Shown one piece after another: positions 21,371-26,169 of a DNA stretch of 64,000 nt (positions are counted from its first letter, which is position 1; every line of letters starts with the position of its first letter). The DNA is taken from assembly GCF_058153355.1 (NCBI RefSeq), contig NZ_CM177019.1; one strand, written 5' to 3'. Made by a program: the position numbers and the translations under genes. The notes under the pieces were generated by a model that saw only the letters and a program-made list of their open reading frames with translations, was not told the origin of the DNA and ran no database searches.

Positions 21371-22008
21371 TTACTCGTCGGCAGCGTAGCCCTGCGGCGG
21401 CAGACGTTGACCATCCAGCCACGCGGCGTTTTCGTGCATTTTCAGACGACCATCGGCAAACCAGCTAATCACCAGTGGATAAATAGCGTGTTCCTGGGTT
21501 TGCACGCGGGCGGTGATGTCATCCTCCGTATCACCAGCAAATACCGGGACTTTCGCCTGTAAAATAACCGGGCCACCGTCCAGTTCATCGGTGACGAAAT
21601 GCACCGATGTACCGTGCTCTTCATCGCCATTTTCCAGCGCCTGACGATGGGTGTGTAATCCGGGATATTTCGGCAGCAGAGAAGGGTGAATATTCAGCAA
21701 ACGCCCGGCATAGTGGGAGACAAACGCCGGGCTGAGAATGCGCATAAAACCAGCCAGCACGACCACATCGGGTGCGTACATGTCGATTTCATGAATCAAC
21801 TCCCGGTCATAGGCTTCACGACTGTCAAACGCGCTGGCGATGAGCGTATGCGTTGCAATACCCGCCTGGCGGGCGCGTTCAAGGCCGAACGCGTCGGCCT
21901 TATTGCTGAAAACTGCCCGTAGGGTGCCTTTAATTTTGTTGGCTTTGCAGGCGTCAATTATTGCCTGCAAATTACTTCCGTTGCCGGAAATAAGCACCAC
22001 AATATTCA

Positions 22009-22009
<1 letters not shown>
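21371..22009 (-). CDS. purN: Phosphoribosylglycinamide formyltransferase 1
   Basis: 212-aa ORF beginning MNIVVLISGNGSNLQAIIDAC; its start overlaps the purM stop. Confidence 0.95.
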
Positions 22010-23064
<1,055 letters not shown>

Positions 23065-23111
23065 TTACTTGCGGTAGAAAAATAAAAATTCGGCGCAATT
23101 CTAACAGGGAA

Positions 23112-23125
23112 AGCAAACGTTTGCG
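23112..23125. promoter_or_regulatory. PurR operator (pur box) in the purMN control region
   Basis: Palindrome AGCAAACGTTTGCG matches the PurR consensus core GCAAACGTTTGC, about 65 bp upstream of the purM start. Confidence 0.65.
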
Positions 23126-23323
23126 AGACTGCTTTACACAACCTTTTTGCACTTCATTTTCCCAAGCGCGCGGCGAAAGAATAGCTGCACCGTGGCAAAG
23201 GAGAGTTTTTGGATGGAATAATATTCTTTCATAACCACATGAATATAAAGTAACTTTATCTAAAACCGTTATCATTTTGACTAAAGTCAACGAAAATAAT
23301 ATTGCCGCCTTGAAGAAAGGAGG

Positions 23324-23345
23324 TATAATCCGTCGATTTTTTTTG
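23324..23345 (+). promoter_or_regulatory. upp promoter -10 (TATAAT) and initially transcribed G-A-T8-G tract (UTP-sensitive reiterative transcription)
   Basis: TATAAT at 23324-23329 is followed by GATTTTTTTTG at 23335-23345, 27 bp before the upp ATG. Confidence 0.65.
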
Positions 23346-23371
23346 TGGCTGCCCCTCAAAGGAGAAAGAGT

Positions 23372-23998
23372 ATGAAGATCGTGGAAGTCAAACACCCACT
23401 CGTCAAACACAAGCTGGGACTGATGCGTGAGCAAGATATCAGCACCAAGCGCTTTCGCGAACTCGCTTCCGAAGTGGGTAGCCTGCTGACTTACGAAGCG
23501 ACCGCCGACCTCGAAACGGAAAAAGTAACTATCGAAGGCTGGAACGGCCCGGTAGAAATCGACCAGATCAAAGGTAAGAAAATTACCGTGGTGCCAATTT
23601 TACGTGCCGGTCTGGGGATGATGGACGGTGTGCTGGAAAACGTTCCGAGCGCGCGCATCAGCGTCGTCGGTATGTACCGTAATGAAGAAACGCTGGAGCC
23701 GGTACCGTACTTCCAGAAACTGGTTTCTAACATCGATGAGCGTATGGCGCTGATCGTTGACCCAATGCTGGCAACCGGTGGTTCCGTTATCGCGACCATC
23801 GACCTGCTGAAAAAAGCGGGCTGCAGCAGCATCAAAGTTCTGGTGCTGGTAGCTGCGCCAGAAGGTATCGCAGCGCTGGAAAAAGCGCACCCGGACGTCG
23901 AACTGTATACTGCATCGATTGACCAGGGACTGAACGAGCACGGATACATTATTCCGGGCCTCGGCGATGCCGGTGACAAAATCTTTGGTACGAAATAA
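23372..23998 (+). CDS. upp: Uracil phosphoribosyltransferase
   Basis: Start placed at the internal ATG ([21 protein letters not shown]) after GGAGAAAG, giving 208 aa. Confidence 0.95.
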
Positions 23999-24012
23999 AG
24001 AATAAAAATTAT

Positions 24013-24043
24013 TAAAGCCGACTTTAAGAGTCGGCTTTTTTTT
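24013..24043 (+). terminator. Intrinsic terminator-like hairpin between upp and uraA
   Basis: Stem agccgact/agtcggct followed by a T8 run. Confidence 0.6.
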
Positions 24044-24083
24044 GAGTAAAGCGCCTATAACACATAATACAGAGGAATATACT

Positions 24084-25373
24084 ATGACGCGCCGTGCTAT
24101 CGGGGTGAGTGAAAGACCGCCACTTTTACAAACAATCCCGCTTAGTTTGCAACATTTGTTCGCCATGTTTGGTGCAACCGTCCTGGTGCCCGTCTTATTT
24201 CATATTAACCCGGCGACTGTACTGTTATTCAATGGTATCGGGACGCTGCTGTATCTCTTCATCTGTAAAGGGAAAATCCCGGCTTATCTTGGTTCCAGCT
24301 TTGCCTTTATTTCACCGGTATTGTTACTGTTGCCGTTAGGGTATGAAGTCGCGCTGGGCGGCTTTATTATGTGCGGCGTGCTGTTCTGCCTGGTTTCTTT
24401 TATCGTGAAGAAAGCGGGGACCGGCTGGCTGGACGTGCTGTTTCCACCTGCGGCAATGGGCGCAATCGTTGCCGTCATCGGTCTGGAGTTGGCGGGCGTA
24501 GCTGCCGGTATGGCAGGTTTACTCCCGGCTGAAGGGCAAACGCCAGACTCCAAAACCATCATCATCTCCATTACCACGCTGGCAGTCACGGTTTTAGGTT
24601 CCGTGCTGTTTCGTGGTTTCCTGGCAATTATCCCGATTTTAATTGGCGTGCTGGTGGGCTACGCGCTCTCTTTCGCAATGGGAATTGTCGATACCACGCC
24701 GATTATTAACGCCCACTGGTTTGCGCTGCCAACTCTCTATACGCCGCGCTTCGAGTGGTTTGCCATTCTGACTATTCTGCCAGCGGCGTTAGTGGTTATT
24801 GCCGAACACGTAGGGCACCTGGTAGTAACGGCTAATATCGTCAAAAAAGATCTGCTGCGCGATCCAGGTCTGCACCGTTCGATGTTTGCTAACGGCTTGT
24901 CGACCGTGATCTCCGGCTTCTTTGGCTCTACGCCAAACACCACCTACGGGGAAAACATTGGCGTGATGGCGATCACCCGTGTTTACAGTACCTGGGTTAT
25001 CGGCGGGGCGGCGATTTTCGCTATCCTGCTTTCCTGCGTCGGTAAACTGGCTGCAGCTATCCAGATGATCCCATTGCCGGTGATGGGCGGCGTTTCGCTG
25101 CTGCTTTATGGTGTTATCGGTGCTTCCGGTATTCGTGTTTTGATCGAATCGAAAGTGGATTACAACAAAGCACAGAACCTGATCCTGACTTCTGTCATTT
25201 TGATCATCGGTGTCAGTGGCGCGAAGGTAAACATCGGCGCGGCGGAGCTGAAAGGTATGGCGCTGGCGACCATCGTCGGTATCGGCTTAAGTTTGATCTT
25301 CAAACTGATTAGTGTGCTGCGCCCTGAAGAAGTGGTGCTGGACGCAGAAGACGCGGATATAACAGACAAATAA
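24084..25373 (+). CDS. uraA: Uracil:H+ symporter
   Basis: Start placed at [36 protein letters not shown] after AGAGGA, giving 429 aa. Confidence 0.93.
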
Positions 25374-25467
25374 TGTACCGACCGGGCAGTGCTGCTGCCC
25401 GGTTCAAACATCATGGGATTCTGTGGTAAACTTCTCGCGATTTTGTGAAATCCTGGTTGAGGTATCT

Positions 25468-26169
25468 CTGAACACACCGGCACAGCTCTCTTTGCCACTT
25501 TATCTTCCTGACGACGAAACCTTTGCAAGTTTCTGGCCGGGGGATAACTCCTCTTTACTGGCCGCGCTGCAAAACGTGCTGCGTCAGGAACATAGCGGTT
25601 ACATTTATCTCTGGGCACGCGAAGGCGCGGGGCGCAGTCATCTGCTGCACGCGGCTTGCGCGGAATTGTCGCAGCGTGGCGATGCGGTGGGCTATGTCCC
25701 GCTGGATAAACGCACCTGGTTTGTTCCGGAAGTGCTCGACGGTATGGAGCATTTGTCGCTGGTCTGTATCGACAACATTGAGTGTATTGCAGGCGATGAG
25801 TTGTGGGAGATGGCGATTTTCGATCTCTACAATCGAATTCTGGAATCGGGTAAAACACGGTTGTTAATCACCGGCGATCGTCCACCGCGGCAGTTGAATC
25901 TGGGATTACCGGATCTCGCGTCGCGACTCGACTGGGGGCAGATCTACAAATTGCAGCCTCTTTCTGATGAAGATAAGTTGCAGGCGCTACAGTTACGCGC
26001 GCGTTTGCGTGGTTTTGAACTGCCGGAAGATGTGGGGCGTTTCTTGCTGAAGCGGCTCGACAGAGAGATGCGCACGTTATTTATGACGTTGGATCAGTTG
26101 GATCGTGCGTCGATTACCGCGCAACGTAAGCTGACCATTCCGTTTGTGAAAGAAATTCTGAAACTGTAG
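25468..26169 (+). CDS. hda: DnaA-inactivating protein Hda (regulatory inactivation of DnaA)
   Basis: AAA+ fold protein ending ..[11 protein letters not shown]. Start assigned to the CTG at 25468 ([19 protein letters not shown]) by analogy with K-12, giving 233 aa. Confidence 0.8.

Follow-up and report, generated by a model that had tools for sequence, protein, structure and literature searches.

A conserved Escherichia coli upp-uraA promoter with the sequence arrangement of UTP-sensitive start-site selection and reiterative transcription

Does the DNA upstream of upp and uraA at this locus hold the elements through which RNA polymerase itself could respond to UTP, such that these salvage genes would be controlled without a repressor? 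The initial annotation had placed TATAAT, 5 bp, and a G-A-T8-G tract at 23324-23345 and had likened this arrangement to the known type of UTP-sensitive start-site selection and reiterative transcription at upp-uraA. In the window, by which we mean the whole 64-kb stretch of DNA that was analysed, both coordinates and description proved to be exact on the + strand, and the likeness was borne out by identity with the promoter of E. coli K-12, by the quotation of the same 11-mer in a published account (PMC7039003), and by conservation in 80 of 80 species. As judged from sequence identity with the characterised K-12 promoter and from phylogenetic conservation, this is very probably the sigma-70 promoter of the E. 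coli upp-uraA salvage genes, controlled by RNA polymerase's own UTP response and requiring no repressor. The mechanism is already known; it was characterised in E. coli K-12 between 1997 and 2001, and its sequence elements appear unchanged here.

Promoter anatomy and genetic setting

The genes around the promoter are arranged as ppk-purN-purM / upp-uraA-hda, followed by yfgD/arsC and bepA, an order and annotation shared with K-12 MG1655 and with the best-matching E. coli genome. purM and upp diverge from an intergenic region of 325 bp, and a spacer of 85 bp separates upp from uraA (Table 1). Two upstream start codons in the mechanical ORF list are longest-ORF artefacts: a GTG at 23345, inside the initially transcribed motif, listed for upp, which truly begins with the ATG at 23372 preceded by AGGAG, and a TTG at 24042, inside the T8 run after the spacer hairpin, listed for uraA, which lies upstream of the annotated ATG.

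Table 1. Coordinates of the upp-uraA promoter elements and neighbouring features in the window.
Feature	Position	Strand	Basis or remark
-35-like hexamer TTGCCG	23302-23307	+	Consensus scan; 16-bp spacer to -10; same in K-12
-10 hexamer TATAAT, perfect consensus	23324-23329	+	Sequence and consensus scan
G+C-rich discriminator CCGTC, 5 bp, from -10 to start sites	23330-23334	+	Sequence
Alternative start sites G6 (23335) and A7 (23336)	23335-23336	+	Positions from sequence; roles from literature
T8 tract (8-bp T.A tract), initially transcribed region	23337-23344	+	Slippage template for repetitive U addition (PMC7039003)
Remaining part of 37-nt 5' UTR, with Shine-Dalgarno AGGAG at 23360-23364	23345-23371	+	Sequence
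upp, uracil phosphoribosyltransferase, 208 aa	23372-23998	+	ORF; annotated upp in matching E. coli genomes
Terminator-like hairpin AAAGCCGACTTTAAGAGTCGGCTTT, then T8, in 85-bp upp-uraA spacer	24014-24043	+	Scan
uraA, uracil:H+ symporter, 429 aa	24084-25373	+	ORF; RefSeq annotation of matching E. coli genomes
purN	21371-22009	-	ORF, upstream side of promoter
purM, GTG start	22009-23046	-	ORF, upstream side of promoter

The + strand reads GGAGG TATAAT CCGTC G A TTTTTTTT G TGGCTGCCCCTCAA AGGAG AAAGAGT ATG, in which the G at 23345 closes the T8 tract, positions 23335-23345 form the 11-mer GATTTTTTTTG, and the ATG of upp lies 37 nt downstream of this motif. Because the spacer is 5 bp, the G is the sixth and the A the seventh base after the -10 hexamer; they are called G6 and A7 here, in agreement with the nomenclature of Tu & Turnbough (1997). 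A consensus scan of 22900-25600 found exactly one sigma-70-like promoter, TTGCCG-16 bp-TATAAT, with 10 of 12 positions matched. The window holds a single copy of the 11-mer GATTTTTTTTG, compared with 0.08 expected from dinucleotide-preserving shuffles, and likewise a single copy of the composite TATAAT-N5-GATTTTTTTTG, even with two mismatches permitted, compared with 0.01 expected. Bare T8 runs are not unusual by themselves (6 seen and 4.9 expected in the window). The motif upstream of upp does not appear to be there by chance, and the strongest evidence for this view is its conservation in 80 of 80 species, described below.

Multiple comparisons place the promoter within E. coli and equate it with the K-12 promoter. 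First, the locus is orthologous to K-12 upp, with the same purM and uraA neighbours, and no difference from K-12 MG1655 was found from 23298 to beyond 23400, corresponding to -37 to at least +66 relative to G6. This span covers the -35 element, spacer, -10 element, CCGTC, GATTTTTTTTG, the full leader, the Shine-Dalgarno sequence, and the upp start, so that everything from -35 through the start codon is identical. Apart from strain background, the differences from K-12 are one substitution (T versus G) at 23297, or -38, which is both the nearest mismatch and the sole one between 23263 and at least 23400, and a more diverged upstream intergenic segment. Second, the window is ~97% identical to K-12 over 9 kb, and we assign the locus to E. 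coli because gene-by-gene identity to K-12 is 95.5-98.7% (98.4% at the nucleotide level for upp), compared with 91.6% for E. albertii over the same locus. A non-E. coli origin had been considered, as the intergenic region is no more than 90-95% identical to that of most E. coli genomes, and was ruled out by this gene-by-gene identity.

Upstream of about -75, the purM-upp intergenic region shows an unusual degree of divergence, with 93% identity to K-12; the diverged stretch ends well upstream of the promoter. When a 341-bp intergenic query was compared with 5,424 complete E. coli genomes, three matched at 99% or better and 5,409 at 90-95%. The central part of the region (~23140-23262) is a rare E. 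coli haplotype, which could be a local recombination patch, and since the upstream sequence is diverged, upstream modulators could differ as well. Near purM, the intergenic region also contains a palindrome, AAGCAAACGTTTGCGA, at 23111-23126, which K-12 shares without change and which can still be recognised in Serratia-like loci. This palindrome fits the PurR operator consensus and is presumably the purMN operator.

The published mechanism and its sequence footprint in Enterobacterales

In their 1997 work on the K-12 upp promoter (J Bacteriol 179:6665), Tu & Turnbough reportedly observed initiation at two sites, G6 and A7, with positions counted from the -10 region. From that study and the 2001 study of Cheng, Dylla & Turnbough (J Bacteriol 183:221), high UTP is said to favour A7 and to yield AUUUUn transcripts (n = 1 to >50) that are not extended, and low UTP is said to favour G6, whose transcripts are elongated normally. 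The 2001 study is also said to have found that trimming the tract below 7 bp progressively weakens regulation, with none left at 3 bp, and that some transcripts escape stuttering. The 8-bp T.A tract in the window exceeds the length at which regulation reportedly ceases (3 bp).

Other accounts agree on this type of control. The initially transcribed sequence of upp-uraA is quoted as 5'-GATTTTTTTTG in one of them, which places upp-uraA beside pyrBI and codBA among the E. coli promoters whose reiterative transcription yields long, non-productive poly-U RNAs and, once begun, never reverts to canonical transcription (PMC7039003). Excess UTP is described as working via switching of the transcription start site at codBA and upp, combined with non-productive reiterative initiation (PMC12709180), and two further papers concur on reiterative transcription at upp (PMC6245113, PMC4448216). 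In a full-text search for the 11-mer GATTTTTTTTG, the hits besides PMC7039003 were just primer sequences and unrelated eukaryotic matches.

Applied to the window by analogy with the published K-12 experiments, the UTP-dependent choice between G6 and A7, the slippage and release of A7 transcripts, and pyrimidine repression of upp would proceed as follows. Polymerase would start at either G6 (23335) or A7 (23336). When UTP is high, A7 starts would be favoured, the nascent AUUU... RNA would slip backwards on the 8-bp T.A tract with repetitive addition of U, and the resulting AUUUUn transcripts would be released before reaching upp, keeping expression low. When UTP is low, G6 starts would be favoured, and the G6 transcripts, GAUUUUUUUUG..., would mostly escape slippage and be elongated normally through upp, past the spacer hairpin, and into uraA. 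Salvage enzyme and uracil permease would in this way rise when pyrimidines are scarce.

We surveyed the 80 closest loci, taking one genome per species and picking them by Upp protein similarity alone. These species represent ~29 genera of Enterobacteriaceae, Erwiniaceae, Yersiniaceae, Pectobacteriaceae, and Hafniaceae, including Escherichia, Citrobacter, Enterobacter, Kosakonia, Raoultella, Pantoea, Erwinia, and Yersinia as well as Dickeya, Brenneria, Rahnella, Hafnia, and Edwardsiella. In all 80 species, TATAAT-N5-N-A-T(7-9) was present no more than 200 bp ahead of the upp ATG. The TATAAT hexamer was invariant, the spacer between the -10 element and the start sites was always 5 bp (CCGGC in 35 species, CCCGC in 27, CTCGC in 12, and CCGTC in 6), position 7 was A in 80 of 80 and position 6 was G in 79 of 80, and the tract had seven T's in 25 species, eight in 46, and nine in 9, with none shorter or longer. 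By comparison, the four nucleotides after the T tract occurred in 14 variants among the 80 species, and the -35 region and leader varied freely among genera. uraA followed upp in 79 of the 80 loci, and the remaining locus was truncated.

Homopolymers are prone to mutation, yet this tract is kept at 7-9 T's in fixed register with the -10 element, which argues for selection on tract length. Read this way, the alignment bears what looks like a clear footprint of selection on the features that the published mechanism requires. A tract held at 7-9 T's also fits the long-tract requirement attributed to Cheng et al. in 2001.

Several observations from individual species accompany this survey. The sole exception at position 6 was the type strain E. 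albertii NBRC 107761, in which G6 is changed to T (TATAATCCGTCTATTTT...); the same change occurs in E. coli O8:H8 16F5M1D1. In a genome labelled Serratia marcescens, in Ca. Symbiopectobacterium, and in Brenneria roseae, insertions lengthen the leader between the T tract and the upp ATG to ~100-170 nt. All three of these species retain TATAAT-N5-GAT7-8, and their extra leader sequence is G+C-rich with hairpin-like repeats, including two hairpin-plus-T-run elements in Brenneria.

Alternative readings and related promoters

Control by a cis-regulatory leader RNA (a riboswitch, an attenuator, or a PyrR-type element) was considered and rejected: an Rfam scan of 22800-24300 with E-values up to 1 returned no match overlapping the promoter at 23300-23400, and the 37-nt leader had no significant structure relative to shuffles, with z = 0.14 for the G6 start and z = 0.19 for the A7 start. 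The same scan gave four sub-threshold matches, all of them on the upp-uraA hairpin. The weakness of the leader folds also bears on the idea that the choice of start site controls translation in the manner of pyrC and pyrD: transcripts that differ at their 5' ends, or that carry additional U's, would fold such that the U-tract pairs with the purine-rich Shine-Dalgarno region and blocks ribosomes. In the predicted A7 fold, the U-tract does pair with CAAAGGAGA and cover the Shine-Dalgarno sequence, and the G6 fold pairs it elsewhere. Neither fold is more stable than those of shuffles, however, and the complementarity is of a generic kind, since U-runs pair weakly with any purine-rich Shine-Dalgarno sequence. 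The leader past the tract is, moreover, highly variable among genera, up to the insertions found in the three long-leader species, and stuttered transcripts are described as never being extended into upp (PMC12709180, PMC7039003). We consider translational control through start-site choice very improbable.

Alternatively, the T8 tract could be incidental AT-rich DNA, with pyrimidine control exerted mainly by a DNA-binding regulator in the diverged upstream region. An intergenic region unlike that of most E. coli, the palindromic PurR-box-like site within it, and the ordinary frequency of T8 runs in the window would all suit such a view, but the PurR-like box lies ~220 bp upstream, near the divergent purM gene, which we take it to serve. 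An incidental tract is also hard to reconcile with the survey, in which the 80 species keep the T-tract within its length class, along with the GA dinucleotide and the exact distance to TATAAT, and neighbouring bases vary, or with the identity of the core to the promoter at which, in the 2001 work of Cheng et al., tract-shortening mutations reportedly abolished regulation. Upstream control by such a regulator accordingly strikes us as highly unlikely. A further possibility is that slippage occurs and is productive, with U's being added and transcripts still extended, as at B. subtilis pyrG, so that the tract would alter mRNA 5' ends. The fraction of transcripts that reportedly escape stuttering in the work of Cheng et al. 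2001 could be taken in this sense, as could the 2025 genome-wide report that productive reiterative initiation is widespread in E. coli, but the latter study explicitly lists upp with pyrBI and codBA as non-productive (PMC12709180), and reiterative transcription at these promoters, once under way, is stated not to return to the canonical mode (PMC7039003). We regard productive slippage as extremely improbable at this promoter. Start-site selection by UTP, coupled to non-productive slippage of A7 transcripts, is the reading that we prefer.

This preferred reading places the promoter among several nucleotide-sensing relatives. The pyrBI promoter was reportedly studied by Liu, Heath & Turnbough in 1994, codBA by Qi & Turnbough in 1995, and carAB P1 by Han & Turnbough in 1998, and CTP-sensitive reiterative transcription at B. 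subtilis pyrG is said to have been described by Meng, Turnbough & Switzer in 2004. The codBA promoter, with the initially transcribed region 5'-ATTTTTTG, is most like upp, in that a UTP-sensitive switch from one start site to its neighbour determines whether the transcript enters the T-tract in the slippage-prone register, and the stuttered RNAs are non-productive (PMC12709180, PMC7039003); it differs in serving cytosine permease and deaminase genes, in its shorter T6 tract, and in the bases and positions of its start sites. At pyrBI (5'-AATTTG) and carAB P1 (5'-GTTTGC), UTP-dependent repetitive addition of U also lowers productive initiation (PMC7039003, PMC6245113), but these promoters have three T's and no start-site switching, UTP acts directly on the choice between slipping and extending, and slippage is combined with attenuation at pyrBI and with repressors at carAB, unlike upp. 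B. subtilis pyrG (GGGC) likewise senses an NTP through slippage at the start of the transcript, but with the opposite polarity: G is added at low CTP, the products are productive, and the addition creates an antiterminator, and the RNA path in the polymerase is structurally different (PMC7039003).

Tract alleles and the upp-uraA hairpin

Tract length also varies within E. coli. An 80-mer around the promoter was matched by 5,423 of 5,424 complete genomes and showed no difference in the aligned part, and hence T8, in at least 4,737. The T7 version was found exactly in 439 of the 5,424 genomes (8%), the type strain ATCC 11775 included, and the T9 version in 19, mostly O157:H7 strains such as FRIK944; taken together, at least 5,195 of the 5,424 genomes have the same core with T7, T8, or T9. 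The T7 strains 3-72 and ATCC 11775 have a distinctive upstream haplotype in common, and this shared haplotype suggests that T7 is a real lineage allele rather than a random assembly error. Since T8 is found in other O157:H7 genomes, the T9 cases of this serotype may reflect miscalled homopolymers.

A second conserved element lies between the two salvage genes. The hairpin in the upp-uraA spacer folds with -15.1 kcal/mol (z = -3.3) and looks like an intrinsic terminator within a so-called operon. Downstream of the upp stop codon, 72 of the 80 species have a hairpin of -9 kcal/mol or lower with a run of five or more T's behind it; in the surveyed loci, this hairpin is located ~15-60 nt past the stop codon. 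The stem GCCGACT/AGTCGGC and the T8 run are nearly invariant in the loci inspected, which is unusual for a plain terminator, and we found no description of the hairpin in the literature searched. Because a strong, conserved hairpin and T8 run stand in the spacer, uraA need not be controlled in proportion to upp, and the hairpin may uncouple the two genes by acting as a partial terminator or attenuator. In a more speculative joint proposal, the promoter tract alleles (T7, T9, and the E. albertii G6-to-T change) might be heritable set-points for pyrimidine salvage and the hairpin a second control point, where attenuation sensitive to nucleotides or to translation would set uraA expression independently of upp. 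The notion of a second control point arises because the stem sequence is conserved far beyond the needs of an ordinary terminator; as a whole, we think this proposal unlikely.

The upp promoter is a textbook case of repression without a repressor, and as a discovery its recognition here matters little. The motif with 7-9 T's in 80 of 80 species does provide modest independent support for the published mechanism. In addition, strains with the G6-to-T change should regulate upp differently, provided that productive initiation at low UTP occurs at G6, and the natural variants T7, T9, and G6-to-T constitute a ready set for studies of start-site selection and slippage.
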